Origin: Corynebacterium glutamicum ATCC 13032
GTDB taxonomy: Bacteria > Actinomycetota > Actinomycetes > Mycobacteriales > Mycobacteriaceae
Assembly (NCBI RefSeq): GCF_000011325.1
Contig: NC_003450.3
Location: forward strand, 1,800,001-1,832,000
Reading direction: 5' to 3'
Length of the DNA: 32,000 nt
Positions 606-29,501 of this stretch are shown one piece after another; the first letter of the stretch is position 1; every line of letters begins with the position of its first letter. The position numbers and the translations under genes are program-made. The notes under the pieces were generated by a model. It saw nothing but the letters and a program-made list of their open reading frames with translations. It was not told where the DNA came from and did no database searches.

Positions 606-629
606 TCAATCCCTTAAAAGGAGATCATC

Positions 630-761: not shown

Positions 762-806
762 ATCAGCACACTCTCACATACCTTTACACCACCCCATACC
801 CTTTAA

Positions 807-851
807 CCCCTGCACTGCTCATCCACAAGCACTGTGCAGGGGTTGTGTTTT
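807..851 (+). terminator. intrinsic terminator
   Basis: CCCCTGCAC (807-815) pairs with GTGCAGGGG (834-842), followed by TTGTGTTTT. Confidence 0.8.
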
Positions 852-872
852 CTAACAAGAAAAGAGACCACC

Positions 873-1310: not shown

Positions 1311-1493
1311 TCAATCCCTGACACAGCCATTGATTCCGAGGATATGAAAGACCCCCGGACTACCGCGAAATTAACACCGGTGTCGGTACCGGCAACTGCA
1401 TCATTGTCGTTCCTGAACAAGCGCCGTGGTTTAAGCCAGCCATCATCAAACAGGCTTAAAAATACTCAATCGTCCCATTCAAGAAAAGAGCAC

Positions 1494-2099: not shown

Positions 2100-2116
2100 A
2101 CCCACACCGCATAACC

Positions 2117-2160
2117 CCCCTGCATAGGCTGATGTCCAGCCTGTGCGGGGGTTATTTTTT
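2117..2160 (+). terminator. intrinsic terminator
   Basis: 15-bp stem, 2117-2131 paired with 2137-2151 (includes two G:U pairs), followed by TTATTTTTT. Confidence 0.8.
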
Positions 2161-2577
2161 CAACTGAATCATCGGTATCTTGCCATTGTTAGCAATGGCT
2201 GCCACTACACCTAAGGTTGCAACCGCAACAGTCCCGATGAGCTCTGCTTTGTTTTTCGCTAACTTCTGCAACAAACCCTTGTTGTCTTTATCGTGCTCAC
2301 GAGCGTACTCATCTATCCGCGCCATATTCTCCCGAGCTTCTTTCCTAGTTTCTTCAGATTGATTCGGATCGAGCGCAATTTTTGCCCACATCTCTCGACT
2401 GGCTTTAATATCCGCCAAATAAGCATCAGAGCCATGCTCGTTACTTTTAATGACTTGCTCATTAGTTTCGTCCATGGACCCTGTAGCCTGCGACGTTAAA
2501 TTAGCCAGATTTGCTGCCACCTGCGCTGCTGCGGCGTTCTCGTTTGGTGTACCGGAATTCTTCGGCGAAATGCTCAT
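2152..2577 (-). CDS. hypothetical tail-anchored membrane protein
   Basis: AAGGAG lies 7 nt upstream of the ATG on the minus strand. Charged helical N-terminal part and a C-terminal hydrophobic segment (LIGTVAVATLGVVAAIA). Confidence 0.75.
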   Translation of the reverse strand: MSISPKNSGTPNENAAAAQVAANLANLTSQATGSMDETNEQVIKSNEHGSDAYLADIKASREMWAKIALDPNQSEETRKEARENMARIDEYAREHDKDNKGLLQKLAKNKAELIGTVAVATLGVVAAIANNGKIPMIQLKK

Positions 2578-2888
2578 TACATACTCCTTAGCCTCGTAAC
2601 TGTATTACCTCAAGTGTATCCGGTGGACACGACGCAGTAGTAAAAAATTTAGACCACCCTTGCGAATAAAAACTAATAAATACTGTTCACTATATTTTCG
2701 ATAATTTATTAAAACTATTCACCCAAAAGTTTTTGTATCAAAATACACATATTTTAATGACTTTAGCTATACTTCTATCTTGTGACTTAAATGAAAGTCA
2801 CAAACTTTGTTGGGGTTTCTTTAAAGTAAAATACAGAAGTTTCTCTGGCAAAAAACCTCACTACTTTCTACAGAAAGGCGTCTTCCTC

Positions 2889-3422
2889 ATGAAGGCTTCT
2901 CAGACCCTCACCCGCAACACTCGTGCACGCAAGCTCGGCATGGGTATTCTCGCAGCAACTATTATGGCTACCGGTGCACTTGCTGGCACTGCTCCACAGG
3001 CGACAGCAGCAGTAGATACCACTGCGCCATACGTGTCCTATGTCGTTGACATTCCTGGCAAGGTTGGTGAACCAATCAAGCCTCAGTACCTCACCATCTC
3101 CGATCAGTCCGCCTACACCGTGACCTTCAAGTACATGCCATCCTGGTTGAAGTACGACGCAAACAAGAAGATGCTGTACGGTACCCCAACCGAGGTTGAT
3201 GTCTGGACTCCTGAGGTACATGTTGTTGATGCTCATGGCAACAAGACTGTCCGTTACTTCACCGTTGTAGCAGTCCCAGCAAACACTGCACCAACCACCA
3301 CCACGCCATCTACTCCAAAGCCATCTACCCCGCAGGTGACCACCCCAACTACTCCGAAGGCGCCTACCTTGCCAAAGTCCACCTTCGACTGGACCTTGTG
3401 GGGCTCCATCTTTGGTTTCTAG
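2889..3422 (+). CDS. secreted protein with putative Ig-like (He_PIG/cadherin-like) domain and Pro/Thr-rich tail
   Basis: Signal peptide MKASQTLTRNTRARKLGMGILAATIMATGALAGTAPQATA. The MPSWLKYDANKKMLYGTPT...FTVVAV pattern is typical of the putative Ig domain. AT-rich promoter region upstream. Confidence 0.8.
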   Translation: MKASQTLTRNTRARKLGMGILAATIMATGALAGTAPQATAAVDTTAPYVSYVVDIPGKVGEPIKPQYLTISDQSAYTVTFKYMPSWLKYDANKKMLYGTPTEVDVWTPEVHVVDAHGNKTVRYFTVVAVPANTAPTTTTPSTPKPSTPQVTTPTTPKAPTLPKSTFDWTLWGSIFGF

Positions 3423-3455
3423 TTCTCACTAGCACCTCAAAAAGCACCACCTTTT

Positions 3456-3502
3456 AAACAACCCTTGTACTGCACCTTGGTGCACTGCAGGGGTTGTTTT
3501 CT
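3456..3502 (+). terminator. intrinsic terminator
   Basis: Long stem, 3456-3475 paired with 3480-3499, with one mismatch and two G:U pairs and T-rich 3' side. Confidence 0.8.
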
Positions 3503-3527
3503 ATGTGCCAACGAGTTCTTAAGAAAC

Positions 3528-3552
3528 ACAACGACAGCAAAGCTGCGTTCGG
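3528..3552 (+). repeat. conserved 25-nt hairpin element, copy 2
   Basis: Identical to copy 1. Lies 77 nt upstream of ATG 3630. Confidence 0.9.
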
Positions 3553-3629
3553 GAGCATGTGTGAACCCTCGCTGTGCCCGCACTTGCCTGCATACAGCTC
3601 ACTCAACAACACAGAAAGAACCTTTTACC

Positions 3630-3896
3630 ATGCTCAATGCACTCAACGCTGTCCTTGATGTTGTCGAATCTGCTCAAGGGCTGGTCTTTGTCGTCATCAC
3701 TGCTAGCCTGCTCACTCTTGCTGTCATCTACATCAAGAACTATCCCCACGCGCCACAGCCTGCTACCCAACACACCACTGACCAACCAACTGTGCCAGAG
3801 CCGCTGCAGATTCTTGACAACCCTGCTCAGACAACTGCTGCTGGTCTACGCCATGACCTTCATAGCGATCTCTACGCCGAAGAAAAGAGCGCATAA
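3630..3896 (+). CDS. small membrane protein (88 aa)
   Basis: Internal ATG after AGAAAGAA. One hydrophobic helix (GLVFVVITASLLTLAVIYI). Confidence 0.6.
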   Translation: MLNALNAVLDVVESAQGLVFVVITASLLTLAVIYIKNYPHAPQPATQHTTDQPTVPEPLQILDNPAQTTAAGLRHDLHSDLYAEEKSA

Positions 3897-4017
3897 TCTG
3901 TGTCTCGATGTTGCCTGGGATGCTGATGAAAACCTCCCTGTTGTCGTTGAAGTCAATCCTGTAGCGATGCCTGGGTGTTGCGCCTCGGGCGCAGCTGGGT
4001 GCTAACTTAGCACCGCA

Positions 4018-4041
4018 TCAACGCAGCGAAGCCGCGTTCGG
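4018..4041 (+). repeat. conserved hairpin element, copy 3 (degenerate: TCAACGCAGCGAAGCCGCGTTCGG)
   Basis: Alignable to the consensus and still foldable. Lies 92 nt upstream of ATG 4134. Confidence 0.7.
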
Positions 4042-4133
4042 GTAAACCCGTGACAATCGCACGGGGCTTGTTTACCTGACACTCAAGCCCCGTGCACCAC
4101 AACAACCCACCTTAAAGAAAGGTTTTTCCACCC

Positions 4134-4601
4134 ATGTCCGAATTCCCTACACCTACGACTTTTCACGTCGAACCAGAAACGCTTAGCTCCGCCACCGATC
4201 TCACTGTTGATGCACATAAAATCGCAGAACTGCTGCTCAGCACCACTGATTACCGTGTGTTCTACATGCCGCGTCTCGCCGGTGTGACTCCTATCGTGTC
4301 CTACCTCTATGTCTACGATGGTGAAAACTTCCTCATTGTTGGTCGCTCCACTCATGTGCCGTGGGAGTACTACGTTCACTACCCCATCAAGCCATCACGT
4401 GAATTTGGCTCTGCTATTGCTGTGCCTCTCGATGATTCTGATGACCCTTATGATGCAGCAGAAGTTGTTGCTCTAGTAAAGCAGTACATGACGCCCACGC
4501 TCACTCCTGGTGAGGGTTATATGCAGGGCTTTTACAAGGGTCTCACCTTCACCAACCACCTCGATATACATCGACCACTGACCCAGATTATCTCAGACTA
4601 A
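4134..4601 (+). CDS. hypothetical protein (155 aa)
   Basis: AAAGAAAGG RBS. Coding-like composition. No family recognised. Confidence 0.7.
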   Translation: MSEFPTPTTFHVEPETLSSATDLTVDAHKIAELLLSTTDYRVFYMPRLAGVTPIVSYLYVYDGENFLIVGRSTHVPWEYYVHYPIKPSREFGSAIAVPLDDSDDPYDAAEVVALVKQYMTPTLTPGEGYMQGFYKGLTFTNHLDIHRPLTQIISD

Positions 4602-4628
4602 CAGCTATATTCACCCACCTACTTCATC

Positions 4629-4868
4629 TTGTGCCTGAGCAACAACCCTGCTTATGCACTCGCTGTCCCTGCTGACACACTCGCTGTTAATCCCAACAGC
4701 ACACTGCCAGCACAACTTGCCATCGTTGAACACACCACCTTAGGTGCTGTTGTTGCAGTACACACACCAGACGCCCGTACCGGACATCACCTCTATATCC
4801 GATCCAGCGTCACTGCTGAATCAGAGGTCCACACCGGCACGGCAACACCTGTTGAACTGGTCTTTTAA
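4629..4868 (+). CDS. hypothetical protein (79 aa), weak call
   Basis: TTG start with no clear RBS. Retained only because it fills the gap before terminator 4906-4951. Confidence 0.3.
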   Translation: MCLSNNPAYALAVPADTLAVNPNSTLPAQLAIVEHTTLGAVVAVHTPDARTGHHLYIRSSVTAESEVHTGTATPVELVF

Positions 4869-4905
4869 AACTACTTCACTTTTTCGCTTCGTTTTACCCA
4901 CACCA

Positions 4906-4951
4906 GCACGTCACCCTCTTGCATCACGCCGAGAGGGTGACGTGCTTTTTT
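4906..4951 (+). terminator. intrinsic terminator
   Basis: Perfect 14-bp stem, GCACGTCACCCTCT paired with AGAGGGTGACGTGC, followed by T6. Confidence 0.9.
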
Positions 4952-4987
4952 CCTACTTTTCCTCATAACTACAGAAGGGACGCCCTC

Positions 4988-5602
4988 ATGTCTGCTTTTG
5001 ATGAACTCCGCAAGAACTACCGCTACAAGTTCACTGACACCTGGCCGGCCAACGCTGTTACCGGCACCGGCTACTACGCCAACCCAGCTTTTATCATCAT
5101 CTCCGCTGATGCCATGACGCAGAACACCCATGCCGATTCCAATCTCATCACGGTTAAAGAGCACCTTAACACCCTGTTTCCGTACAGCGTACAACGCAAG
5201 GATCGTGCCTTTGTCTCTGAGATCTACACCCCTATTAACCTGCTCGAAGATAATCCAGAACTAGCTCAAGAAATACTCGATGTGCTCGACACCCTGAGCA
5301 ACAACGCTGTTTTTAACGATGCGCACTACAGCGAGCTTGAACTAGAGCGCCTCAATGAATATGTCATCGACACCTTGGCCTATGACATGAAGTCCGACAT
5401 GATGCGCGCCCTCGTTAAGGCCCGACCAGAGGCCGATCTTGAGGCGATGGAAGAACTCGACATTGCCAATATCCAGAGCTGGATTAATCTCCACTCCTCC
5501 ACTGTGAGCGAACACAACGATGGCAGCGTTGATGATGCACCGTTTAATTCTCTCGCATTAGCTGAGATTTATTTGCAACAGCTTGCAGACCACACTGTCT
5601 AA
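4988..5602 (+). CDS. hypothetical acidic protein (204 aa)
   Basis: Internal ATG after AGAAGGGA. No family recognised. Confidence 0.75.
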   Translation: MSAFDELRKNYRYKFTDTWPANAVTGTGYYANPAFIIISADAMTQNTHADSNLITVKEHLNTLFPYSVQRKDRAFVSEIYTPINLLEDNPELAQEILDVLDTLSNNAVFNDAHYSELELERLNEYVIDTLAYDMKSDMMRALVKARPEADLEAMEELDIANIQSWINLHSSTVSEHNDGSVDDAPFNSLALAEIYLQQLADHTV

Positions 5603-5774
5603 GCACGCTGTGTAACTACCACTGATTTTCATCCTCCGCTAGAGGACACCTCTGAGCACGACCGCCATATCGCGTTCATTGTTGATGGTATTTATGACTC
5701 AACCAGGCGCCCCTACGTCATGACGTTTGCGCCCGATCAACTCCACGACATCTGACACAGAAAGAAGATTCACC

Positions 5775-6689
5775 ATGTCTAAGAACAACGCAGCTCACCC
5801 GCAGTCTGTCTTCCATATTCATATCCCAGCACATACCACTATGCACTCTGACCGCTTTGAGCACCCAGACAACGGCTATGGCTACACCATTCGTCAGGAC
5901 ACTGATGCAGAGAACCCGATGACCCATCACGATACGAAAGATGCAGCTCTCTGGGTTCACAACCGACCACGACGCGGAGATACCGTCGCCGATAAGCCAG
6001 AAGGCAATGAGATTCTCGACATCTTTGCCAAGTTCATCTGCGGCCAGCACGATAATGATGACAACCCGTTCGAAGTCTGGTCCGACGGTGACTCGGATGC
6101 ATCACTCATCCGCACCAAGGCGTATGTTGCCGAGCACCACCCCGAACTTATATTCGACATCTCTGCGAAAACCATCACGGGTTATTCCCAAGGCGATTGG
6201 CTCGATGTGGTCTGTGTTACTACTGCCGCCACTTGCGACGAACTTATCCCTGCTGACAGTCTTATTGACATCTACCGCCAGTGGGCTTTTGGTGATGTGT
6301 GGACAGTGATTCCTGATTCTCAGCCAGGTCTCGCAGGTATTTATGCTGACGATCCAGCTGACGCCCTTGCGTACTATCAAGAGAATTTCGAAGATGAACC
6401 CATCTGGGATCTCTTAAGCCGCCACGACGCTGACAAAGACGCCGCAGCACTGGCAGCTGCCTCTGCTGCAGAAAACCACGCACTAGCGCGAGGTACTACC
6501 CCAGTCGTTATCCGTACCCAAGACATCATCACTAACGCGCGATACCTCATGTCTGATAGTGCTGATGACAATCCAGAATACGATCGCGCCTTGGTCGAAC
6601 TTAGTGCTTATCTCTTAAGTATCGACCTCGATGATCGCGTTGCTGCAGAGATGACCATTTTAGGTCGCCCTGTGCCTAAAGAAGGATAA
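5775..6689 (+). CDS. hypothetical acidic protein (304 aa)
   Basis: Internal ATG after GAAAGAAG. Contains GYSQGDW...WAFGDVW blocks. No family I can name. Confidence 0.8.
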   Translation: MSKNNAAHPQSVFHIHIPAHTTMHSDRFEHPDNGYGYTIRQDTDAENPMTHHDTKDAALWVHNRPRRGDTVADKPEGNEILDIFAKFICGQHDNDDNPFEVWSDGDSDASLIRTKAYVAEHHPELIFDISAKTITGYSQGDWLDVVCVTTAATCDELIPADSLIDIYRQWAFGDVWTVIPDSQPGLAGIYADDPADALAYYQENFEDEPIWDLLSRHDADKDAAALAAASAAENHALARGTTPVVIRTQDIITNARYLMSDSADDNPEYDRALVELSAYLLSIDLDDRVAAEMTILGRPVPKEG

Positions 6690-6916
6690 CCACCACACCA
6701 GAAAAGAAGTACCTCATTATGGCTCGAACCACACCTCCACCAGCTGATGTACTCGACATCATCATTTACCACCGTGAAGCAGACCATCGGCATTGATCTT
6801 GCTGAACTGATTCAGGGCCGTGCACTCGGCCAGGCTCAAGGTGAGGCACAAGGCAAAGCTAGTGCAGCAGCCCTTGAGCAGGCACCTCATAATGAGCAGT
6901 AAATAACACACACCAC

Positions 6917-7399
6917 ATGTGCACAGATACAGTTAGTCGCATGTACGCATTCTATATTCTCGACACCATGCTTAATCGTTCGATCAAACAGATTGAGCAA
7001 TGCCTGGATCGACAAGACACCACCATCAGCCACATCATCGCCGATAGCGTGCACGACAAGCTACATGAATATGCAACAACTAATCCACCCTGTGACAGCG
7101 ACAAACAAGCACTTCTCGGTCATGTCGAGCTTGAGATAGCTAGTTTACAGATCATCATCACGAGCATCCATCCTGCAGAGGGCACAGATATGGTGGTGTG
7201 CGGCACAGTCTCAGCATCCGCATCAACATGGTTTTATACCGTTGATGAGGTCTTTACCCAAGGCTGGCGCAGTCACTTTGGGTCAGTGCTTGTCGAAGGC
7301 AGCTTCGCACTGTTGATAGACCCTGACACCTTTGACGTGCACAATCTTGATCTTGTCGGTCAACAACACGTGCACTGGGTGCCAGCTCGACAGCCGTAA
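6917..7399 (+). CDS. hypothetical protein (up to 160 aa; start uncertain)
   Basis: Long ORF with several candidate ATGs (6917, 6950, 6968), none with a good RBS. Confidence 0.5.
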   Translation: MCTDTVSRMYAFYILDTMLNRSIKQIEQCLDRQDTTISHIIADSVHDKLHEYATTNPPCDSDKQALLGHVELEIASLQIIITSIHPAEGTDMVVCGTVSASASTWFYTVDEVFTQGWRSHFGSVLVEGSFALLIDPDTFDVHNLDLVGQQHVHWVPARQP

Positions 7400-7546
7400 A
7401 GAAGTTGTAGGTCTTTTTCGCTTGGGATACTGATGCTCTCCCAAGCGAACATGGGCGGGAGCCCATGTCGGGGTGTTGTGCGAATGGCTGTGTGTCAACT
7501 ACCTCAGCCTGAGAAAACAACACTTATAAAGAAAGACCTTTTACTC

Positions 7547-8116
7547 ATGACTTCTACAACTAACTCCACCGCCATGTTCAACGACCACCTTATCCCTATG
7601 GCAGAGCTTGATGAACAAGCTCTGCGCGACAGCGTTGGTTCTTGGGCACAGTACAAGCACCCGCTTGACCAGCGCAAAGAACCAGAGCTCGTCCTTATTC
7701 GTCGCGTCAACAGCTCAGAGCGTGTGTGGGTCTTAAGTTTCACTGACCTGCGTGCTGATGCAGGTCTTGTGCCTCGTAGCACACCGAATGCTGACCCCTC
7801 CAATATCCGCAATACCATTTTCTCTGTCGCTGTCCGCGATCTTGTCCTTGATCGCTCACTTCCCCGGCTGCTTAACCTCAACGGGCAACCACCAGCAGGT
7901 GAATGGGAAGAAGGCTTTGTCTACGTCGATTATGACCAGAGCGACACCGTAGATGGCTACCTCATTGAGCACAGCGAACCTGTCTCCATTGAAAGTCAAA
8001 CCACCGGTGAAATGCACTATTTCGATAAGGTGCCAGGCGGTGTGGCTGTTACCAACAATCCCGATGGCACTGAACAAGGTGATGCACGCCGCTGGGTAAG
8101 CCACTGGGAATCATAA
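7547..8116 (+). CDS. hypothetical protein (189 aa)
   Basis: Internal ATG after AAAGAAAGA. No family recognised. Confidence 0.7.
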   Translation: MTSTTNSTAMFNDHLIPMAELDEQALRDSVGSWAQYKHPLDQRKEPELVLIRRVNSSERVWVLSFTDLRADAGLVPRSTPNADPSNIRNTIFSVAVRDLVLDRSLPRLLNLNGQPPAGEWEEGFVYVDYDQSDTVDGYLIEHSEPVSIESQTTGEMHYFDKVPGGVAVTNNPDGTEQGDARRWVSHWES

Positions 8117-8136
8117 AAAAGAAAGTAGCACTAGCT

Positions 8137-8424
8137 ATGCCTAATCACCCACCTATTTCCACCTTCGATGACCGTCGCTCTGCTATGCGCGAAGGCATTA
8201 CTGATTACCTTGCCAATACAAATGCAAATGGGTTAGGCGGTTACAGCATCAGCGACACCCACCTCGACAATCTTGCTGAGAAATTCACCCGCACACATGG
8301 TGAAGCACAGTACGATGCCGGCTTTGATCCCAATGATCTTGAACCAGAGACTTTTGTTCGTGACATTGAGATGAGCTGGGATGAGCGTGCTATTGATCGT
8401 GCCCTGATCCACACACAACTGTGA
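8137..8424 (+). CDS. hypothetical protein (95 aa)
   Basis: AAAGAAAG RBS. Homologous to the frameshifted gene that follows. Confidence 0.7.
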   Translation: MPNHPPISTFDDRRSAMREGITDYLANTNANGLGGYSISDTHLDNLAEKFTRTHGEAQYDAGFDPNDLEPETFVRDIEMSWDERAIDRALIHTQL

Positions 8425-8438
8425 AGAAAGAAGCCGCA

Positions 8439-8835
8439 ATGTCCACCACATCCACCTATGAGAGCCGTAAGGCAGCTATTCGCGACGCTATTCTCGCCTA
8501 TGTCAACAACAATCAAGGCTGCTGCACCCTACAGCCTTCATGCCCATGATCTCGAACAGCTTGCTGTAGATCTCACTTTAGTTACCACCTTTGATAGCAA
8601 TGCTGCAGTTGATGTCACGCCAACACATACAGAAGCACCTGGTTTTACCCTGCATGAGGGCACCGATACTGCGCCTATGGCTCCAACCCTGGTCGTACCT
8701 ATTTCCAGCGACATCTCCACAGCCGTTTCGGAAATATCTACATTAGTGCAGCAGGCTCGCACCGACGCAGCAAGCGCCATTCATGAAGCAGAAGCTGAAT
8801 TTTACAACCAACTTGCTGCGGTCCTTGCTCAGTGA
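8439..8835 (+). pseudogene. frameshifted paralog of 8137..8424
   Basis: ATG 8439 follows GAAGAAAGAAG. This frame stops at 8547-8549. Similarity to the upstream paralog continues in the +1 frame (the 8458..8835 track ORF), so the shift lies near 8514-8526. Confidence 0.5.
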
Positions 8836-9232
8836 TTTAATGTGGCCGACACACCCGATCGCGTGCCAGCTAAAAACGCCCTGTTTCACGGGTATTCGCC
8901 TGACTTTGAGTCAGCAAAAAGCGTGCATTCTCACAATAGCAACATCTCAAAAACTAGCCCTGACCTGCACAGTCTAGACTCACTCGCACTTTAACTTAAG
9001 CCTCACATACTTTCGTCACAGTGATGTTACGTAACCACCTCATAGGTCGCTTAAAAATACAGACCCTTGAGGGAGTGCCCTCAATTCTGCCAAAAAAGCA
9101 CCACCGCTATCACCAGCCATCACCACTTCCTGTGCACGGGTTGAGGCGATCGTGTTCCTGTCTGGGCACTGGGCGGTTTATGCATGTTTGTTGCACGGTT
9201 ACTGTACGGGCTCATCCACCACACCTACCCTT

Positions 9233-9760: not shown

Positions 9761-10375
9761 ATGTTTGGTAGTAGTTTTAAGGAACAAACAACTAACCCGA
9801 GAAGTCAACGAGTTTCTTATTTGCGTGTCTCTAGCACCGATCAGAATCTGGCTCGACAACGTGAAGCTGTTAACCATTCCGGTCATATTGATCGTGAGTT
9901 CACAGATGAGCTTTCCGGTGGCGCCAAATCACACAGACCTGGCTTGGAAGACTGCATTAATTATCTTCGCGAGGATGATGTTCTTGTCGTCGCATCCATT
10001 GACCGACTTGCACGCTCGCTGGTTGATTTACGCGTCATCATTGACCGCATCACAGACAAAGGCGCATCGGTCATTTTTCTCAAAGAGAATTTGACTTTCG
10101 CTGCAGGCCGCGATGATCCTCGAGCAAACCTCATGCTCGGTATTTTGGGCAGTTTCGCAGAATTTGAACGCTCAATTATTCGCGAGCGCCAAGCAGAAGG
10201 TATTGCCCTGGCAAAAAAGGCCGGCAAGTATGCAGGTCGCCCAAAAGCCCTCGACAAGGAACAAATACAAGAAGCAAAAGATATGATCGCTCAAGGTGAA
10301 ACAAAATCTGCTGTCGCCAAGCATTTTGGTATTAATCGCTCGACCTTGTACGAATATCTCAAAAATCCTGACTAG
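9761..10375 (+). CDS. serine recombinase (resolvase/invertase family)
   Basis: YLRVSSTDQNLARQ contains the catalytic Ser motif. Also SIDRLARS, FAEFERSIIRERQ and the C-terminal HTH VAKHFGINRSTLYEYL. Confidence 0.92.
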   Translation: MFGSSFKEQTTNPRSQRVSYLRVSSTDQNLARQREAVNHSGHIDREFTDELSGGAKSHRPGLEDCINYLREDDVLVVASIDRLARSLVDLRVIIDRITDKGASVIFLKENLTFAAGRDDPRANLMLGILGSFAEFERSIIRERQAEGIALAKKAGKYAGRPKALDKEQIQEAKDMIAQGETKSAVAKHFGINRSTLYEYLKNPD

Positions 10376-10552
10376 ATTGAGAATCAACTATGCGACAAGT
10401 CAACTTGCATACCAGTATCCGAGCACATCCACCCCCGAAAAAATTAGGTAAAGCTTGCCTATTTAAGAAGAACTGCTATAAGATCATCCATACATGCAGA
10501 GCACAGCTTTCACACATAGACATCACTGCACATTTATCTAATGGGAGACTCA

Positions 10553-11548
10553 ATGACAGTTGCACACAAACGAAGTCTGACATGGATCAAGAGACTATCT
10601 GCGACTACATTTGCAGCTTTTCTTGGCATTCAGCTTGTGACCCCCGCTCACTCAATTGAAAACACGACGCAGATTCCAGAAAGCGAATTGCACAACCTCG
10701 GGCTCACAGACGAAGAAATTCAAGAATTCAATCAATATCTCATTGACGAGTCACTCTTTCAAGAGACTGTAGAAACCTCTCCGATCGTAGTCAGCGACAA
10801 TGAAGATGCAGCCCAAGATCCCGGTTTCGGCCTTTTCACCACAAATCCTGTGAAACACACAGATGAGCACATTGGCGCTCTATACTTCTCCGACCTACCA
10901 GGTATTTCCAATCTTACGTGCACTGCCAACTACATCGGTGGAAAATTCTGGACCACAGCACATCATTGTGTTGAAGGCCGCAGTCGCTTCGTCGGCTTCA
11001 TCGAGCAGTCGGACGGACAATATGCAGGCATTGAGCATGTTTACACAAAGTCAAGTGACTACGATATTGCCCTCATTAAAGTGGGATCTGGAATTGACGC
11101 AGAACAGTTCAGCCTCACTCGATCACGCCCTGCGGTTGGAAAAATGCTGGAAGTCGTTGGGTTTGCAGTTGTGAACCCATTCTCCTCTAGAGCAACAATG
11201 GAAGTCACCAACTCAAACACAGTCGCGAACTATCCTATGAGCAACCTGTACTACAAAGACGTATTCTCGGCTAAACCCGCAGGATCATTCCCTTATGTCA
11301 TTTCCGGAGGTGATTCCGGCGCAGCTGTTTGGTCGGGTGAAACCATGTACGGCATTGCTAGTGGCTCTAACGGCAGCACTAAAAACCTAGCAGCAAATGT
11401 TGGACCGCACGTCTCTTGGATCGAACAAACGATGCAAAACAATAGCAATTCCTCTCCCTATGAAATTTTGCAAGCGTTCCGAGGCGGCCTTGCAACGTCT
11501 TACCCCAAATATAATCAAATTAGAGACCTAGTCGACTCAAGTAGTTAA
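10553..11548 (+). CDS. secreted trypsin-like (S1 family) serine protease
   Basis: GGGAGA RBS and signal peptide. Catalytic triad contexts are TAHHC, DYDIALIKV and GGDSGAAVW. Confidence 0.88.
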   Translation: MTVAHKRSLTWIKRLSATTFAAFLGIQLVTPAHSIENTTQIPESELHNLGLTDEEIQEFNQYLIDESLFQETVETSPIVVSDNEDAAQDPGFGLFTTNPVKHTDEHIGALYFSDLPGISNLTCTANYIGGKFWTTAHHCVEGRSRFVGFIEQSDGQYAGIEHVYTKSSDYDIALIKVGSGIDAEQFSLTRSRPAVGKMLEVVGFAVVNPFSSRATMEVTNSNTVANYPMSNLYYKDVFSAKPAGSFPYVISGGDSGAAVWSGETMYGIASGSNGSTKNLAANVGPHVSWIEQTMQNNSNSSPYEILQAFRGGLATSYPKYNQIRDLVDSSS

Positions 11549-19169: not shown

Positions 19170-19635
19170 AAGGGAAATAGACAGCATCAACGCTTCGCGG
19201 GTAAGCCAGCAGAGCAAGATTCATGGGCATGAGTCGTAAGACAGACCGTGACGGCACCGCATAGCCACTGTACAGTTGCTGTTAACTAGGACTATCTCTT
19301 TTCCTGCCCTGAATGGCGAGCAGAAGATCGTTGCGTAACCCATCAGAATTTTCTGCAACCAAAGACCGCACTTTGTATCAGCAAAGTGCGGTTAATACCA
19401 ATTCCCGGAAAGTAGAACATGGGGAGATTTAATGAGGAAGCAGTACCGAACATGCATGAAAGAGAGACAGGCAAATAGCCGACCAGAGCGTATAAAGGTA
19501 CCATACACACCCTGTCAACCGATGACATAGTCATTCCACCCGAATGAGTAGTCACACAACCAAGACAAATCACAACTGTATTACCCCACCGGATGGTGTA
19601 AAAAGCACGGAAGACTTGATTTAAAGGGTCCACTA

Positions 19636-19744: not shown

Positions 19745-19954
19745 TCACTCATCAAATCCTGAATCAGTCGCAGTACCTTCTGTGGATTGATCACTGTCAG
19801 CGATGGATACTTTCTGCCGACGTTTCTCCATCAGTTTTTTAGAACCTCCGACCAGCCCTACACCTGCTAACAGCACCAAAGATGCTCCTACAGAGCCCTG
19901 AACCCTGCCCTTGTGCAGTCCTTTATTAAAACCATGTCCCCACTGCGCACTCAT
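19745..19954 (-). CDS. small membrane protein (69 aa)
   Basis: GGAG lies 6 nt upstream of the ATG on the minus strand. One TM segment (ASLVLLAGVGLVGG). Downstream of the KAP gene on the same strand. Confidence 0.5.
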   Translation of the reverse strand: MSAQWGHGFNKGLHKGRVQGSVGASLVLLAGVGLVGGSKKLMEKRRQKVSIADSDQSTEGTATDSGFDE

Positions 19955-20177: not shown

Positions 20178-22391
20178 TCAATCGACTATAGAATCTGCGA
20201 TACTGTAGCCCCCTAATCGTTCTCGAGTGAAATCACTTCTTCCAGTCTCCAGTGCATATGCGACAACTTTTCGCTTCCCTTCCCAGCTAAAATCCGTGAA
20301 CTGTATCTTACCTAGTTCTACATCTACTTCAGACTTGGTTATAGCCCGTAGAGAATCAGGTACGTACCGTGAAAACAGACTATGCTGAAAAGAATCTATC
20401 CATGCACCACCGCTTGGTCCCTGTCGCGAAGAATACACAGTCGTTAAGAAAAGCACTCCAATATCTATCACATCAAACTGATGTTCCTCTATACCACTTT
20501 GCAGAGACTTCAGCACTGAAGAAAAATTCGAGCTTTTCGCCAAAATACCAAGCGAATATGGACCTAAATCCCAATCTGAGGGGTCCTGATTCTTCAATAC
20601 ACTTAAAATTCTAGCTTCGGTCTTTATATTAACTTTACGAAAAAGCTCAAGGCCACTTACATCATTACCACAGGCTCTAGCCCTTTCCCCCACCTGGTTT
20701 AACCAGAAAGCAGCCTCATTAAGCGTCATCTCAGAAAAGAATTTCTCATAGAGTTGTTCCACTGGTAATTGAGGCAATGCACCAAGAATCGAGCACGCAT
20801 GGGAATACAGGTCACTGAATATGCCGCTCATACGCACTTGACGACCTTTATCATGCATACCATTAGCAGCGGTGAATAACACCTCAACTGCCATGTGCCT
20901 AACACCCTCTCCATCAAGTCGATCAATTGCTAGAGGAAGCTTTTTCATCACTGATGCCACCATGTCATTGTCATCGGAGTTAATTAAATCGACGAAACCC
21001 ATAGCATCGTCCGCATTAGATAGATACTTATCCAACTGTTCATCACTTATGACATGTCCAGGTCTTTGAAACATGAGGTACGTGTCAAAATAAACTTCCG
21101 TCGAGATCCCCCTCTCACGATGCATTCTCGTACTAGGGTGATCCGAAAGACGTGGGAAAAGGAACAAAAGCATGGTCTTTAAAAGATCCATCTGCTCGTT
21201 GTTCATCCCCTCACATAATTGCTTTTCCCAACCGGGTTTCTGCGAGCCTGTCGTTCGACCTCCTTGAAGCAATACTTCCTTCGCTCGAGAAAGACGTTTA
21301 TACACAGACGGAAAAACAATTCGAATGGTCGCAAGTATTGTGAGATCAACGCCGTTAACTTCACCTGATCCATATATCCGAGTCCAGTTGGTTAGTAGAG
21401 CAGCAAAACGGTGCAACAGCCTCGGCGTGACCAGAGTCTTTTCCCAGACATCGAACATTCTCGACTTCACTAGTGCAAAGTCTTCAGGATCACCCGATAG
21501 CGAAACACCCTGGAAAAGCTTGTCAAATAATGCACTGAGCTCTTTCTCTATTTGAAATGATGTCAGAGGCGGAACATCGAAAGGATACTGCACGATTTTC
21601 TCCATGAAACGCAAAGCATCATCTTCGCTACCACCTACAGCTGTCGATCTGGCTAGCGTCGTTAACAGTGATTCTTCTTCATAAACCAAAAGATAATTCA
21701 CCTGCGGGAATCGTCCAAGCAAGCGTATTACTTTCATTAACAGCGCCAATTCATCAGTATGGAGGCGATCAATATCATCGACGACAATGAGAATTCGCTT
21801 GTTCAGATCTTTAAAATGGTTCGCAGCACGTGTATACAGCGTTGGCCACGAATCTTGCTCCTGTTTCCATGTCTTATATACAGCGTTTGCAGCATCTACT
21901 CCTTTTGAGAGCGCAAGTGCTTCTAGGACACCAAACCCTCCGACCCCACCTGCAATTGACCCAATCGTGCTAAAGGTTTTCTGCAGAACAGTTTTGATCT
22001 TTTGGCCGGTCTTATCATCAGGTACCGTCCCAACGATTACTCGGTAAAACTCCTCAATCAAAGATTGCGGGTCAGAGGCCACCCACGGGTTGAAATCAAC
22101 GATTGTCCATTTTTCGTTCGATAGAGATTCTTCCGAGCGAATCAAATTAACAAGAGATGTCTTACCACTGCCCCACTGACCAGTAAGACTGAAAACAGTG
22201 CTCGCTCCCCAAGGTGCCACATCGCAGATTATATTTGCCAGCTGGGCTGAATACGCAGAACGCTCGAAACGATCCTCAGAGATCTTAGTAATAGGCAAGT
22301 CTCGACCAGATACTGAATCTCCATCAGTTTTTACCGTGTTGTTTTTTGCCGCATCTGAAAATGGGGTAAACAGTCCGCTCATTTCTAGCAC
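20178..22391 (-). CDS. KAP-family P-loop NTPase
   Basis: Walker A is LTGQWGSGKTS and Walker B is ILIVVDDIDRL, in the KAP-typical context. A Gly-rich hydrophobic segment (TIGSIAGGVGGFGVLEALAL) lies between them. Start is either GTG 22391 or ATG 22382. Confidence 0.88.
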   Translation of the reverse strand: MLEMSGLFTPFSDAAKNNTVKTDGDSVSGRDLPITKISEDRFERSAYSAQLANIICDVAPWGASTVFSLTGQWGSGKTSLVNLIRSEESLSNEKWTIVDFNPWVASDPQSLIEEFYRVIVGTVPDDKTGQKIKTVLQKTFSTIGSIAGGVGGFGVLEALALSKGVDAANAVYKTWKQEQDSWPTLYTRAANHFKDLNKRILIVVDDIDRLHTDELALLMKVIRLLGRFPQVNYLLVYEEESLLTTLARSTAVGGSEDDALRFMEKIVQYPFDVPPLTSFQIEKELSALFDKLFQGVSLSGDPEDFALVKSRMFDVWEKTLVTPRLLHRFAALLTNWTRIYGSGEVNGVDLTILATIRIVFPSVYKRLSRAKEVLLQGGRTTGSQKPGWEKQLCEGMNNEQMDLLKTMLLFLFPRLSDHPSTRMHRERGISTEVYFDTYLMFQRPGHVISDEQLDKYLSNADDAMGFVDLINSDDNDMVASVMKKLPLAIDRLDGEGVRHMAVEVLFTAANGMHDKGRQVRMSGIFSDLYSHACSILGALPQLPVEQLYEKFFSEMTLNEAAFWLNQVGERARACGNDVSGLELFRKVNIKTEARILSVLKNQDPSDWDLGPYSLGILAKSSNFSSVLKSLQSGIEEHQFDVIDIGVLFLTTVYSSRQGPSGGAWIDSFQHSLFSRYVPDSLRAITKSEVDVELGKIQFTDFSWEGKRKVVAYALETGRSDFTRERLGGYSIADSIVD

Positions 22392-22627
22392 TGTACCGTG
22401 CTAAATCTTGGCACATGCAGCAATATCGGTGGGACACATCATCCATCGCTGTGTGCTAGAACCGCCGTATGTTAATAAGGCCTACTACGCCCCTGCAGAG
22501 ATTCTAGTTCTCCTTCTTAAAACGGATATACCATCCAACTCTTAAGTCGCCGTATACATCGACTTTTCGGCTTCATATGAGATGCTATTTACCTACTTTT
22601 CCAGTGGTGTGTCATAAGATCCGAAGC

Positions 22628-24325
22628 ATGACTGTTTTCCATGATTTTGAAATAGTAGTTACCCCAAATCCTGATGCCCCAGAAGCTTTGCAAAAAATAG
22701 GAGAACAATACTGGATAATCTCGGAGATTAACCCAGATCTGAAAACTGTTCAATGGGCGCAGAATGTCTCAGATATTGACCATCAACCCTGGTCATCTTC
22801 CGCCTACCTCGCTGCTGCAGCAGCAGTGGATGCTACAGTCCCTACCGCACATTGTAGTGCATGTGATTCTATCTTGACGTTAACGTCTCGTGCCGCAGTG
22901 AGCGAGGTACTACGAGAGCGACCTATAAAGTGCAAAAAGTGTACCCCCAAGATTGATGAACACATCAAAAAAATATTAGACCCAGCAGCCCAGGCGAGAC
23001 AAAAAGAACGCGCTGCGCGAAAACGGGAAGAAGACTGCAAAAGGGCGCAACAGCGGCTTGCAGATCAGAAGGCGCGAGAGGCGCGACAGCTGCTAGATAT
23101 TGAACGTCAGCAGGTGATTGCAGATCGCTATGGGCCGTTGGTGAATATGCATAGCGACGCTGTGCTAGCGGGTGCTTCAATAAGAGCAAAAATAGGTGCT
23201 CTCGCAACTATTTACGGTGCTCAAAACTTAGAGAATGTCATTCACTCAGTTAGTTTTACTGACAGACGTATTTCTCCCGATGGACAACTGTCGAAAGAAT
23301 TATTTCGCGAAGCTTGGAGCGCAAACCTTCTTATCCCTGATCCATCTTCTGATGTGGAAGCGTTTGCGTGGAGCGAAAAGAATTCCACTGAGCTAGCGGG
23401 AGGCATATTCGTTGAGAAAATGCTATTTACTGTCCCGGACACAGGCCGCTCCAATAACCGTGTCCAGAGCTTCTCAGAAGAACTTCGTAACCACATTTCT
23501 TTGAAAGATATGTATTCTACACAACGTGAAGAGCTATTAGACCTTGCCTACGAGCTCATGGTGGGGGAAGCAGTACGTTTTGCTAACTTCCGCCTTTATG
23601 ATCAGAATCTCCCACCACTTACTGAAGCAAATATAGACAAATTGAGAGCCCATCTACGTGAGGCCGCAGCTAGTGCGTCACTAGGAGTGTTATATCTAAT
23701 GGTGTGGCGATCTGTAAAAGACGCAGCTGCAGCGCACACTAAACATACAAGAATGAGCAAAGAAAATGCGACAACGCATAGTGTTACAAAAGTTTCTATC
23801 TTTGTTGACCAATTATTAAGCGGAACATTCCCTTGTTCAAAGCCTTTTCACGAATCTTCACAAGTCCCACTGAGTGAAGCCACCAAGATAGTTTTTAATT
23901 TGATTATGGAGTCACCGCCGATGGAAACTGAGCCGAGTGTGCTGCGAAATTCCCTCCAAGAACACTCGGATTGGGAGCTATTGCAACAGTGTGATGAGAA
24001 GATTCCTGATCGGGAGTTTCTGATGGAGTGGTTATATCAAGAACAGACGTGGACTGCAGAGCAATTTTTTGATGCTCTAGCTATGGTTTCTTCTAGCGAG
24101 TTTCGTATATGTGCACCTGGATGTGCGCATCAAGTAAGTGCAGACATCGCTACACAAGTCTTAGAATTCCACGATCGAGTGTCTTTCCATGACGATCGTA
24201 AAAGCGCCATGCTTGCTGCTGAAGCAACTATTATTGGTAACAAAATTGGTTCACAAGCACGGGCCGGAGACTTTGTTTTAGGTGAAGTAATCACCAAGCT
24301 GCAGAACATACCTGGTGAGGTATAA
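22628..24325 (+). CDS. hypothetical 565-aa protein with CxxC...CxxC zinc ribbon and highly charged coiled coil
   Basis: CSACDS...CKKC, then AQARQKERAARKREEDCKRAQQRLADQKAREARQLLDIERQQ. The rest is unrecognised. Divergent from the KAP gene. Confidence 0.75.
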   Translation: MTVFHDFEIVVTPNPDAPEALQKIGEQYWIISEINPDLKTVQWAQNVSDIDHQPWSSSAYLAAAAAVDATVPTAHCSACDSILTLTSRAAVSEVLRERPIKCKKCTPKIDEHIKKILDPAAQARQKERAARKREEDCKRAQQRLADQKAREARQLLDIERQQVIADRYGPLVNMHSDAVLAGASIRAKIGALATIYGAQNLENVIHSVSFTDRRISPDGQLSKELFREAWSANLLIPDPSSDVEAFAWSEKNSTELAGGIFVEKMLFTVPDTGRSNNRVQSFSEELRNHISLKDMYSTQREELLDLAYELMVGEAVRFANFRLYDQNLPPLTEANIDKLRAHLREAAASASLGVLYLMVWRSVKDAAAAHTKHTRMSKENATTHSVTKVSIFVDQLLSGTFPCSKPFHESSQVPLSEATKIVFNLIMESPPMETEPSVLRNSLQEHSDWELLQQCDEKIPDREFLMEWLYQEQTWTAEQFFDALAMVSSSEFRICAPGCAHQVSADIATQVLEFHDRVSFHDDRKSAMLAAEATIIGNKIGSQARAGDFVLGEVITKLQNIPGEV

Positions 24326-24370: not shown

Positions 24371-24592
24371 ATGGAGAAGTCGTGGATTTTCGCCCGTAAC
24401 CACCAAGAACTCGCCGAGGTACTCCTCGAACATCTCGACATCACCCATGACAGCGATCTCGTGCGCCTCGCAGCAGCGTGTCTCGACTGTGAGGTCGATG
24501 CCGTCATGTGGGTAGAAGACAAAGACAATGAACCACCACTCAACAGTTTTTTCACACTCAGTGCAGTGACACTACTCAACATCTATCTATAG
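24371..24592 (+). CDS. small hypothetical acidic protein (73 aa)
   Basis: Codon style matches the 0-18 kb backbone. No clear RBS. Confidence 0.4.
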   Translation: MEKSWIFARNHQELAEVLLEHLDITHDSDLVRLAAACLDCEVDAVMWVEDKDNEPPLNSFFTLSAVTLLNIYL

Positions 24593-24956
24593 AAAAGCCA
24601 TCAACGCCCCTCACAGAAAAAGTGATGAGGTGTTGATGGCGTTGACAGAGTTGCCGCACATCCACAGGCGAGCGCAAACAACACACCTGCGACATCCGTG
24701 TGAATTTCTACCCGTCAATGACCACAAGGTGAACCCGTGGCTTACTCAAGTGAAGTGCCCCAGGTTTTGTTCCGTTTGAGTAGATGGGAAAATCTGAGGC
24801 ACTTCATACCGGCACACTTGATCTCTGTGCACATAGCGATACTGATGTTCAGTTCCGGCCACTCAACACAGCGCTGACATTCCACTACAATGCAGACTCT
24901 GCAGTATGGGAACTCGCGCCATTTGACTAACACATCCACAAAAAATAACCCTCGTA

Positions 24957-25002
24957 GTAGCTTAAACAAGCTGCTGCGGGGGTTATTTTTTTACTTTTAC
25001 AT
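24957..25002 (+). terminator. intrinsic terminator
   Basis: 15-bp stem, 24957-24971 paired with 24980-24994. It includes three G:U pairs that only work on the + strand RNA. T-run follows. Confidence 0.75.
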
Positions 25003-25747: not shown

Positions 25748-26644
25748 TCAGGAAGCAGATCTCAGGATAGCAGGACCGCGCTCCTCAAACACGACCGGAG
25801 CCAGATATCTACACCAGGAATGCCGGCGAACCGTGTTGTAACGGGTACACCAGCGGAAGACGTCCCGGCGACAGCACAATTGATTTTCAAAGGTCTTGGA
25901 ATCCTGCAGGACTTCCCGCTTCATCGCGGCATTGAAAGACTCCGCCAAAGCGTTGTCAGCACTGGTGCCAATTGATCCCATCGACTGCCTGATCCCTAGT
26001 TTCTTACACGTCTCCTGAAACGCATGAGACGTGTAAACGCTGCCGTGGTCGGAGTGAAAAATCGCACCTTTGAGGTTTCCACGCTGGTCTTTAGCCATGA
26101 GCAGCGCGTCCTGGACCAAGCTCGTGCGCATGTGATCTGCGATAGAAAAGCCCACCAACCTGCGGGAGTAACAGTCAATGACCGTGGCCAGGTACATATT
26201 CGACCCATCCTGAATTGGCAGATAGGTGATATCCCCGACATAGAGCTGGTTCGGCTTGTCAGCGGTGAACTTCCGGCCGACAAGGTCAGGGAACACTGTC
26301 TTGGTTTTGTCCGGCACGGTGGTGGTGACCTTGCGTTTCTTTGTGTATCCGAACAGCTTCAACGATCGCATGATCCGGGCAACCCGCTTGTGGTTCGCAA
26401 GGTCATGGCCGATCTGGTCTTTGAGTTCAGCCGCGATTCGTTTGGCCCCATAACAGCCACTGTGAGTGGTGAATACAGTCTTGACCTGGACCCCAAGAAT
26501 AGCGTCGCTGAGCAGGCGTTTTTCACGCGTGAAGGCGGTGCTTTTCCATTTGTAATATGAGGAACGATTGAGCTTCAACACGTCACATATCCGCTTAACC
26601 GAGTAGGTCTTTCGAGCGTCATCAACGAATCGGAAGCGGATCAC
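25748..26644 (-). CDS. IS3-family transposase OrfB (DDE integrase core)
   Basis: DDE contexts are YVGDITYLP, FHSDHGSVYTS and DNALAESFNAAMKRE. Confidence 0.92.
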   Translation of the reverse strand: MIRFRFVDDARKTYSVKRICDVLKLNRSSYYKWKSTAFTREKRLLSDAILGVQVKTVFTTHSGCYGAKRIAAELKDQIGHDLANHKRVARIMRSLKLFGYTKKRKVTTTVPDKTKTVFPDLVGRKFTADKPNQLYVGDITYLPIQDGSNMYLATVIDCYSRRLVGFSIADHMRTSLVQDALLMAKDQRGNLKGAIFHSDHGSVYTSHAFQETCKKLGIRQSMGSIGTSADNALAESFNAAMKREVLQDSKTFENQLCCRRDVFRWCTRYNTVRRHSWCRYLAPVVFEERGPAILRSAS

Positions 26645-26937
26645 CAGTTCGTCTCTTCCGCGAAATATTTGGCCGCTTTCCGCAGGATGTCACGCTCTTC
26701 GCGGAGGAGTGCATTTTCCTTTTCAAGTTGGCGGATCCGTTCAGCTTCGGACAGCGCGGTGGCCGTGTTAGCGCCATGTGGAGTTGAGTTGGCCCCGTAT
26801 TTAGTAATCCAGTTTTTAAGGGTCATTCGGTTGATTCCGAGATCATTGGCGATCTTCTGGATCGAGGTGCCGGCGGAGTTCTCGTAGAGCGCGACAGCGT
26901 CGCGCTTGAACTCCTCTGTGTAGGTCTTGCGTGGCAT
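26641..26937 (-). CDS. IS3-family transposase OrfA (HTH + leucine zipper)
   Basis: IQKIANDLGINRMTLKNWI and LEKENALLREERDILRKAAKYFA. The stop overlaps the orfB GTG (GTGA). Confidence 0.92.
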   Translation of the reverse strand: MPRKTYTEEFKRDAVALYENSAGTSIQKIANDLGINRMTLKNWITKYGANSTPHGANTATALSEAERIRQLEKENALLREERDILRKAAKYFAEETNW

Positions 26938-27397: not shown

Positions 27398-27419
27398 AAG
27401 CTCTATTGTCCCCTACGTG

Positions 27420-28620
27420 CTCGTTTCTGGCCTTTTAGTAAGCACCAGGAATAAGCGCCGATGAAGACACAATCATACCGACAATTAATCGTGCCGATAT
27501 GAGCTCTTAAAAGACAGCATAAAACGAGTTTTTCAAAAGCCTATTAAGTGTCAATTACGACGTGCATTAATAGATACTCAATCACCTTAAATTGTTGACA
27601 CACTCCACTAAAACAGGTCTATTAAAAGACAATTGAATTACGCCCTAGTAGTACTTGTTTCAGGCCACCACTTAGAAGGCTTTTAAGTATCCACTATGTA
27701 TCAATTATCTAGAACCTTTAGTGACTTTGAAACGGCAGTACTCTATTGGCTCTTAATGGTCAATTACATAACAATTATATTGAGCCTTTGAAACAACTCA
27801 CTCTGCTGCATATTAAAAGGTCGATTAACTAACGATTGAATTGATCCTTAAAAAGCCTTTATCTATCGCATTATGAATAAATATTTAATCGACCTTTAAT
27901 AGTGACCTAAAAGCCTTTTAAAAGCCAACGCATTCAGTGACTTTTAAAAGGCTATTAAGTGTCAATTGAATTGCCTTGTTACTGGCTTTTAAAAGGCTAT
28001 TAAAGAACACTCCCCTATTGTCTTTTAATCGTCACTTAATCGACCTCTAAAAGGTAACTAATTGACTCTTGAGTGACACATATTTAATTGACCTTTAAGT
28101 AACGATTATAAGGCAATTAATGTGACCAAATAAAGACACGTAACTGACTAATCTTTATCTGACTATTACAAGGCTTTAAAAGAGCACTTATGTGTCGATT
28201 AAGTGTCTACGCAATAACTGTGCTTTAAGAGGCTTTAAAAACTACAATTGAATCGACCACTAATCGTTACTTAAATGACTATTAACAAAAGTCACTTTTA
28301 GAGCACCGCAAAAGCCTTTTAATGGTCACGCAATAAGCCTTTAAGTAACAATTAAATAAGTGGCTTTAAAATCACTACTGCAGCACGATTGAAAGGTAAT
28401 TAGCGGTCGATTAAGTGTCAATTAATTAATAGTGATTCAAAATCTCATTAAAGCGCAATTCAATTGACAGCTAATAAGCCCTTAAGTAACAAATACTTTA
28501 TCCGTACTTTAAGGGCACGCTAAAAGCCTTTTAATCGACATCTAATTGTCATAACGCTTCGATGCGCCCATGGGAATACACTTAGCGGTCGATTAAATGG
28601 ATACTAAGTAGCAATTAGCC
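27420..28620. repeat. 1.2-kb ORF-free AT-rich field of degenerate TTAA-punctuated short repeats
   Basis: No ORF of 60 codons or more on either strand. Recurrent words include CTTTTAAAAGGCTATTAA (27941 and 27986), (G)GTCGATTAAGTGTC (28194 and 28405) and TTTAAGTAAC (28094 and 28339, with variant CTTAAGTAAC at 28481), plus CAATTGAAT and AAAAGCCTTTTAA. Some words are shared with the terminator flanks at 14.6 and 16.2 kb. Confidence 0.8.
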
Positions 28621-29501
28621 AGAGTCGCGTGACAGAGTTGTGGCGCACAGTAGCACATCACCCCTACCCCCGTGCATCTCTTAATTAGCACTAAAACAAC
28701 ATTTATCTACTTTATGCTGTTTAGTTTTAACGGACTACTACCCCCACCATTGCGGGACAGTGTAACGGTATTGTCCGCACTAAAAGTGACTGAAATATGG
28801 CTACAGAGCTGCCTGCAACGAGCATCCAATTCAAGCCGACAACGAGCTTGTAGAAACGCAGCTACAGCGGACACCAACGAGCCAGCAACGCATGATCTAG
28901 CGGCCTGAAACAGGCGCCTTGAAGCCCGCCACAATGTCGCAACAAGGTCGCAACAATAGCCCGGAAAACTCCCCAACGGACTGTTGAGGCAATCAGCTTG
29001 AGTCACCCAACAAGTGCCCCAGCGAGCCTGCTCTATCGGTTGCGAAATCGGCCTCAGCAGGCTCTCTCAAACACTTGAGAAAAACTCTGCAGCAAACCTT
29101 CCTCACGCCCCGCAACAAGACCTCACAAGACTGCAACGGCTGCTAGAAAAAGCTCCTATAATTCCTCGCAGCAAGCTCCCAGAAACACTGCCGCAGCACC
29201 GTTTAAAACCCGCCACAGAATTACAGCAAACCCCTCAGCGACACTGCTGAAGCACTGTCGCATGTCGCAGCCCTCCGTGAGCCCAGAACCCCTTAAAAAT
29301 ATCCATTCCAGGACCTCTTAAACGGTCTCTACAGGGGCTGAAAAAGCACTTATCAAGCTACAACGTCTGCTTCATCTCTATCACCGGTATATTCCAGTGG
29401 GACCCTCGTTCTCGTGCCTCGAACCCCACTGAAATACACCGGCGTCGCACTCGCTTCGCTCATATATACAGCAGACCTCTCCTACCTGGGAAAACGCAAA
29501 A

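Follow-up and report, generated by a model that had tools for sequence, protein, structure and literature searches.

We describe two divergently oriented genes in a 32,000-nucleotide stretch of DNA (hereafter the window): one for a P-loop NTPase of the KAP family, 737 amino acids (aa) long, and one for a 565-aa protein with a zinc ribbon and a long charged helix. An earlier reading of this DNA, made from the sequence alone, had proposed that the two constitute a module for exclusion or defence. Our comparisons with other genomes lead to a different view. The two genes are probably independent neighbours in a mobile, AT-rich region, namely a stand-alone, distantly PifA-like KAP NTPase, which would act alone against phages or in exclusion, and an unrelated gene for the 565-aa protein. 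The pair was found only in copies of one genome lineage, and these copies are 100% identical. Homologues of the KAP protein stand alone in variable, defence-rich, insertion sequence (IS)-rich or mobile contexts, and the family of the 565-aa protein is carried singly on plasmids, integrative and conjugative elements (ICEs) and islands and is widespread in actinobacteria. The features of the two genes and of the spacer between them, in coordinates of the window, are:

20178..22391, minus strand: gene for the KAP-family (PifA-like) P-loop NTPase (map of open reading frames, ORFs; Pfam KAP_NTPase, 7.4e-85)
21372..22262, minus strand: KAP NTPase domain, residues 44-340 (Pfam)
22158-22181, minus strand: Walker A, GQWGSGKT, residues 71-78 (motif in the KAP protein)
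21909-21965, minus strand: hydrophobic insert, residues 143-161 of the KAP protein (Kyte-Doolittle mean 1.59)
21768-21791, minus strand: Walker B, LIVVDDID, residues 201-208 (motif in the KAP protein)
20178..21371, minus strand: C-terminal region of the KAP protein, approximately 400 aa, with no recognised domain (Pfam, alignments)
22392..22627, no strand: divergent spacer between the KAP gene and the gene for the 565-aa protein (repeat search)
22628..24325, plus strand: gene for the 565-aa protein, a member of an actinobacterial mobile-element family (ORF map, homologues, AlphaFold)
22853..22942, plus strand: CxxC-x22-CxxC zinc-ribbon motif, C76/C79/C102/C105 (alignment of 40 family members)
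22982..23131, plus strand: long charged helix, residues 119-168, a possible coiled-coil stalk (AlphaFold, composition)
23990..24130, plus strand: second Cys/His cluster, C455/C495/C499/H501 of the 565-aa protein (alignments)

Co-occurrence of the two genes was surveyed at 18 independent loci of the 565-aa family (L001, L002, L011-L016, L022-L028, L030, L031-33, and L034-35) and at 8 independent KAP loci (L010, L017, L018, L019-21, L029, L036-37, L038, and L039). The latter include two with 46% identity each (L010 and L036-37) as well as plasmid F (L029), plasmid pCOCCU (L038), and plasmid pCE3 (L039). The hidden Markov model (HMM) used for KAP proteins was built from 37 homologues and recovers F PifA at an E value of 7e-34. 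Neither this model nor tblastn revealed a KAP ORF within 5-8 kb of the 565-aa-family gene at any of the 18 loci. Conversely, the family HMM and tblastn detected no member of the 565-aa family at any of the 8 KAP loci, among them two plasmids of Corynebacterium and a 10-kb contig that carries a 46%-identical relative. Since the copies within the lineage are 100% identical, they lend no independent support to the pairing. The two genes are not syntenic in other genomes, the outcome named beforehand as telling against a two-gene module, and a divergent module of a KAP and a ribbon/coiled-coil gene is therefore not supported. As far as the comparative data go, the divergent pair appears to be an accident of adjacency. 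The statement that no described system has this pairing agrees with our results: none of the named systems in PADLOC-DB v2 corresponds to the pair, and no paper on a KAP plus zinc-ribbon pair was found in the literature.

The spacer measures 236 bp if the KAP ORF is taken to start at the GTG (737 aa), and 245 bp with the ATG at 22382, which is preferred by public gene callers and gives a protein of 734 aa. The previously estimated length of approximately 235 bp thus holds, but the shorter spacer that would follow from a 582-aa start of the divergent gene at 22577 does not: homologue alignments and gene callers favour the 565-aa start. The search of 22392..22627 for a shared operator returned short imperfect repeats only, none of which was convincing.

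The KAP signatures GQWGSGKT and VVDDID, recognised in 20178..22391 by the sequence-only reading, are indeed present. Pfam KAP_NTPase (PF07693) matches residues 44-340 over profile positions 1-293 of 293, with an E value of 7.4e-85 and 285.2 bits vs a cutoff of 20, and the protein contains both Walker motifs, A (GxxxxGK[ST]) and B (hhhhDD). Aravind and colleagues defined the KAP family as P-loop NTPases whose NTPase domain is interrupted by inserted membrane segments. A hydrophobic insert had been noted between the Walker motifs; it occupies residues 143-161, is rich in Gly and Ala, and has a Kyte-Doolittle mean of 1.59, close to the usual threshold for a membrane helix and thus a borderline value (F PifA peaks at 1.27). 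Past residue 340 of 737, Pfam detected no domain. The C-terminal 400 or so residues are kept only in the closest KAP relatives (46-48% identity, 98-99% coverage). They appear to be clade-specific, because the alignment with most other homologues is limited to the N-terminal 55-65%. What is seen in the KAP protein is its domain anatomy alone: an intact KAP domain with both Walker motifs, an insert between them that is weakly hydrophobic, and a variable, domain-less C-terminal region. By analogy with related proteins, the gene is a candidate for an antiphage role.

At E<=1e-20, 350 KAP homologues were retrieved, mainly from actinobacteria and mostly about 700 aa in length; a homologue occurs in 101 plasmid records. 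Their surroundings differ from locus to locus. SIR2_2 and helix-turn-helix (HTH) genes lie beside one homologue, resolvases beside another, and an Eco57I-type methylase beside a third, which is abutted by a 175-aa gene. The 175-aa gene, to which no function is assigned, is separated from the KAP homologue by a 2-nt gap (L019-L021). On pCOCCU of C. occultum (L038:3172-7055), AbiEi/AbiEii are followed on the same strand, after 1 nt, by the KAP homologue and then by IS21/IS3 elements. On pCE3, the homologue is accompanied by a MobF relaxase, an IS, and an HTH gene. No neighbour recurs across the 8 independent loci. Directly downstream of P0009, a KAP homologue of the closest clade (46% identical), a gene for an Lsr2-family xenogeneic silencer is located (L036:2819-3220), which recalls CgpS in the CGP3 prophage considered below.

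The 565-aa protein was at first taken for an orphan, a view that can no longer be held. A word-indexed search found two relatives only, one in C. deserti (39% identity) and one on a metagenome contig (32%). An exhaustive search of 1.84 billion cluster representatives with the three-sequence profile made from these and the 565-aa protein then revealed 419 clusters (50% identity) at E<=1e-3, including 90 at E<=1e-30, most of them about 560 aa long. The CxxC…CxxC ribbon reported earlier corresponds to C76-x2-C79 and C102-x2-C105, and all four cysteines are invariant in an alignment of 40 family members. In the same alignment, Y28, W29, R88, and E314 are also invariant, while W43, W248, R317, and W360 are near-invariant. 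Distant members of the family match up to approximately profile position 445 only.

With the 40-sequence alignment, AlphaFold modelled the protein at a mean predicted local distance difference test (pLDDT) score of 92.9 and a predicted template modelling (pTM) score of 0.73. A model made with a 3-sequence alignment reached a pLDDT of 49.5 and was discarded. The predicted architecture comprises an alpha/beta N-domain with the ribbon, a 50-residue helix, and an all-helical C-terminal region. The helix, residues 119-168, is rich in Arg, Lys, Glu, Gln, and Ala, has pLDDT values mostly above 90, and corresponds to the charged coiled coil of roughly 45 residues that had been expected from the sequence. 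A second putative metal site, formed by C455, C495, C499, and H501, is conserved in the closest clade only.

No match to the 565-aa protein was obtained in Pfam, NCBIfam, PADLOC, or PHROGs. Pfam searches with 60 family members and with the extended or fused ones yielded a few TPR or SEC-C domains and one weak winged HTH, with the core unmatched; PADLOC and PHROGs searches with 40 members gave no meaningful match. A few members of the family possess N-terminal extensions of approximately 180 aa or TPR fusions. The lowest E value in a profile search of the PDB with the family alignment was 0.19, and Foldseek found no match at E<=1e-3 to the pLDDT-93 model in the PDB or BFVD. The top Foldseek matches, acyl-CoA dehydrogenases and transporters, were dropped with template modelling scores of about 0.1. 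Also ruled out was the protein as an analogue of PifC, as it displays no similarity to F PifC (E 3.8). Judged from the model, the fold appears to be without counterpart in the PDB or BFVD, the two structure sets compared, and no global novelty is claimed.

All named sources of the members traced belong to the Actinomycetota, where the genes reside on chromosomal islands, ICEs, and plasmids. Chromosomal carriers were identified in Corynebacterium, Herbiconiux, Pseudolysinimonas, Rhodoglobus, and Rhodococcus, and plasmid carriers in Rhodococcus, Streptomyces, and Thermobifida. A metagenome scan with a 10-sequence alignment yielded only 3 loci. No member was present in phage records or detected in a scan of viral contigs. 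In Rhodococcus sp. JCM 9791 (L016:7977-9661), the gene is split into two ORFs of 184 and 377 aa, apparently by a frameshift or as a pseudogene.

The all-against-all comparison of neighbouring genes revealed no recurrent neighbour of the 565-aa family. Repeated occurrences were generic: ABC ATPases at 3 loci, relaxases at 2, Abi genes at 2 (both in Rhodococcus), and D12 methylases at 2. Defence genes adjoin the family at several loci and include GmrSD, Abi together with a reverse transcriptase, methylases with GIY-YIG, and DndB-like and NACHT-like genes; metabolic or replication genes surround it at others. This adjacency to defence genes is only a hint. Our best guess is that the 565-aa protein is an autonomous conflict or establishment protein of mobile elements. 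A more specific proposal, which we put forward tentatively and hold to be rather doubtful, is that it founds an undescribed family of autonomous, single-gene conflict proteins of mobile elements in the Actinomycetota, serving defence or anti-defence. As part of that same doubtful proposal, the gene would hop singly between plasmids, ICEs, and prophage islands. Such a family would combine a zinc-ribbon N-domain with a helix of 50 residues and with a helical domain that contains the invariant E314 and the near-invariant R317. The 565-aa family is more novel than the KAP gene, the latter being of the stand-alone KAP kind.

Three further features of the window bear on the setting of the two genes:

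19745..19954, minus strand: 69-aa hydrophobic single-pass protein, downstream of the KAP gene (ORF, hydropathy)
25748..26937, minus strand: IS3-family insertion sequence, with orfA at 26641-26937 and orfB at 25748-26644 (NCBIfam transpos_IS3, 2.4e-89)
9761..10375, plus strand: small serine recombinase (resolvase) (Pfam Resolvase, 3.7e-38, and HTH_7)

The 69-aa ORF, previously described as a single-pass membrane protein, fits that description with one hydrophobic segment at residues 18-36 (Kyte-Doolittle 1.72). No homologue of it was found by tblastn beside any KAP relative in the collected loci; the gene is therefore probably outside any conserved unit. A terminator-like hairpin is located at 19365-19392 on the minus strand. 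The block of the two genes was said to be AT-richer than its surroundings and to lie beside an IS, and both points were borne out: its content of guanine and cytosine (GC) is 45.4%, lower than that of the window (47.8%), bases 1-9000 (50.4%), or the IS (53.8%). The 5.1-kb block has no megablast counterpart in the collections of plasmids and phages, and nothing in the whole window was recognised by the scans for Rfam families and tRNAs.

To the right of the 565-aa gene, a 73-aa ORF at 24371-24592, called in public assemblies as well, precedes a very strong terminator-like hairpin (24942-24989; 20-bp stem followed by a T-run) located about 600 bp 3' of the 565-aa gene. Directly adjoining the IS3 element is a segment of approximately 1.3 kb (27400-28670) with 36% GC and a sliding-window minimum of 33%, which contains no ORF of at least 60 aa and no Rfam or tRNA match. 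Convincing ORFs are few across the whole 27-32 kb stretch. On the other side, about 9.8 kb from the KAP gene, the resolvase is adjoined by a gene for a trypsin-like protein of 335 aa (10541-11548) with a weak PADLOC match to Lamassu LmuA (1.1e-6).

The region very probably belongs to CGP3, a cryptic prophage, in a genome of the C. glutamicum ATCC 13032 type. We base this assignment on the position of an identical KAP protein at 1.81-1.83 Mb of chromosome CP115148.1, on the match of the resolvase and the IS3 element, which are about 16 kb apart in the window, to cg1929 and cg1950-51, and on C. deserti as the source of the nearest relative of the 565-aa protein. In CGP3, cg1929 is a resolvase and cg1950-51 are transposases, and the strongest signal of the silencer CgpS is at this IS (PMC5137423). 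Phage CL31 is amplified faster by MB001, a strain free of prophages, than by a strain deleted for restriction–modification (R-M), which implies further prophage-encoded defence beyond R-M (PMC8002715).

Several observations weigh against a KAP NTPase that defends the cell on its own next to an unrelated gene. The similarity to F PifA is restricted to the NTPase part (192 vs 963 bits) and pifC is not present, the hydrophobic insert is borderline by its Kyte-Doolittle mean, and none of 50,697 phage records contains a KAP homologue. Several of the contigs that bear close KAP homologues lack the length to reveal neighbours, and the prophage assignment is itself inferred. The lack of synteny elsewhere is also compatible with a functional link specific to this lineage. 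Such a link is the essence of a lineage-specific two-gene defence module, in which the KAP protein would have the 565-aa protein as its partner, be it a sensor, a regulator, or an effector, and both genes would be co-regulated from the divergent spacer. The adjacency and divergent orientation of the genes, the spacer of about 240 bp, the low GC content common to both, and the identical arrangement in all assemblies of the lineage would fit this. Yet identical copies provide no independent evidence, co-occurrence was 0/18 and 0/8 in independent loci, the spacer lacks a shared operator-like repeat, and the 565-aa protein is unrelated to PifC. We regard a two-gene module of this kind as very improbable.

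A KAP NTPase that serves the mobile element itself, through maintenance, regulation, or membrane-associated signalling, with phage exclusion as a side effect at most, is compatible with the absence of KAP homologues from phage records and with their frequent location on plasmids beside relaxases and replication genes; for PifA, too, restricting phages may be other than the main function (PMC13552941). Set against this are the strong protection from phages conferred by four unrelated stand-alone KAP proteins (PMC13552941) and the repeated adjacency of KAP homologues to bona fide defence genes, and we consider service to the element unlikely. Decay is the least probable explanation of all, to which we give hardly any credence: one or both genes would be decaying cargo that is silenced in a cryptic prophage and no longer serves any function. 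The AT-richness of the region, the scarcity of convincing ORFs in the neighbouring 27-32 kb and, in the case of CGP3, the location beside the strongest CgpS peaks at the IS (PMC5137423) could be read in this way. Both ORFs, however, are full length compared to their homologues (95-99% coverage) and free of frameshifts, and the 565-aa protein retains every invariant residue of its family, in contrast to the visibly frameshifted copy in Rhodococcus JCM 9791. Independent neighbours, one of them a KAP NTPase acting alone, are the explanation that we favour.

A defence model with a single protein is suggested by an architecture like that of the KAP proteins in PMC13552941 and by the resolvase 9.8 kb away. 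In this model, the C-terminal region of the KAP protein would be the sensor of a phage product and/or the effector, and the KAP domain would be a switch turned on by NTP binding or hydrolysis. F PifA acts at the membrane to abort infection by T7 and is triggered by gp1.2 or gp10. The output of the window protein may similarly be an aborted or blocked infection, possibly at the membrane. As a guess, the zinc-ribbon N-domain of the 565-aa protein would bind a nucleic-acid or protein target, while its long helix would mediate dimerisation.

As the two-gene system is not a conserved unit, the proposed pairing matters little. If the window is part of CGP3, the KAP NTPase becomes a concrete, easily tested candidate for the slowing of CL31 by the prophage beyond CglI R-M (PMC8002715), in an organism that offers well-developed genetics and a prophage-free reference strain. 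The 565-aa family, which is sizeable, restricted to mobile elements, confidently foldable, and unannotated in the libraries searched, is a fit target for screens for defence and anti-defence in actinobacteria.

Known systems share with the 565-aa protein only the four-cysteine zinc ribbon, which is generic to many nucleic-acid-binding proteins. The KAP protein can be compared with three kinds of system. QatA of QatABCD is also a KAP-type NTPase and is the second-best PADLOC model for the window protein (2e-11). This resemblance is weak; the NCBIfam match to QatA (8e-5) scores 21.5 bits vs a cutoff of 600, and no PADLOC match to QatB, QatC, or QatD was found in 16 ORFs of the window (the six nearest and ten further ones).

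The kinship to PifA claimed earlier for the KAP gene was confirmed, as the closest defence model is that of PifA (PADLOC PDLC02361; 3.4e-57, 192.5 bits, residues 29-501 vs profile positions 6-500 of 720). The protein of the window and F PifA both contain Pfam KAP_NTPase, are of nearly the same length (737 vs 741 aa), have equal spacing between Walker A and Walker B, and are borne by mobile elements. The differences are considerable. BLASTP identity is 23% over 363 aa (E 5e-24) and covers N-terminal residues 29-364 of the window protein only, while its C-terminal third does not align. The window protein reaches 192 bits on the PifA model, in contrast to 963 bits for authentic F PifA. The window locus, in which the gene upstream is oriented divergently, has neither a pifC repressor gene nor a pifCA operon, and it belongs to an actinobacterial host.

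The third comparison is with the stand-alone KAP NTPases described in PLoS Biology in 2026, a set of EF_KAP and three metagenomic proteins (PMC13552941). E. faecalis is protected from phages by these four unrelated proteins, whose C-terminal regions are uncharacterised, and protection needs both Walker B and the C-terminal region (PMC13552941). Their genes are located near small serine recombinases, which were used as markers of defence genes (PMC13552941). The window protein is likened to them by architecture. It differs in the absence of an N-terminal transmembrane helix and in the distance of the recombinase, which is about 9.8 kb off and not adjacent. The likenesses are a single gene, a KAP domain followed by 300-400 aa without a known domain, a hydrophobic element (borderline in the window protein) within the NTPase domain, and a small serine recombinase in the same island. 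The KAP gene of the window, distantly related to PifA, is best placed among the stand-alone KAP NTPases.

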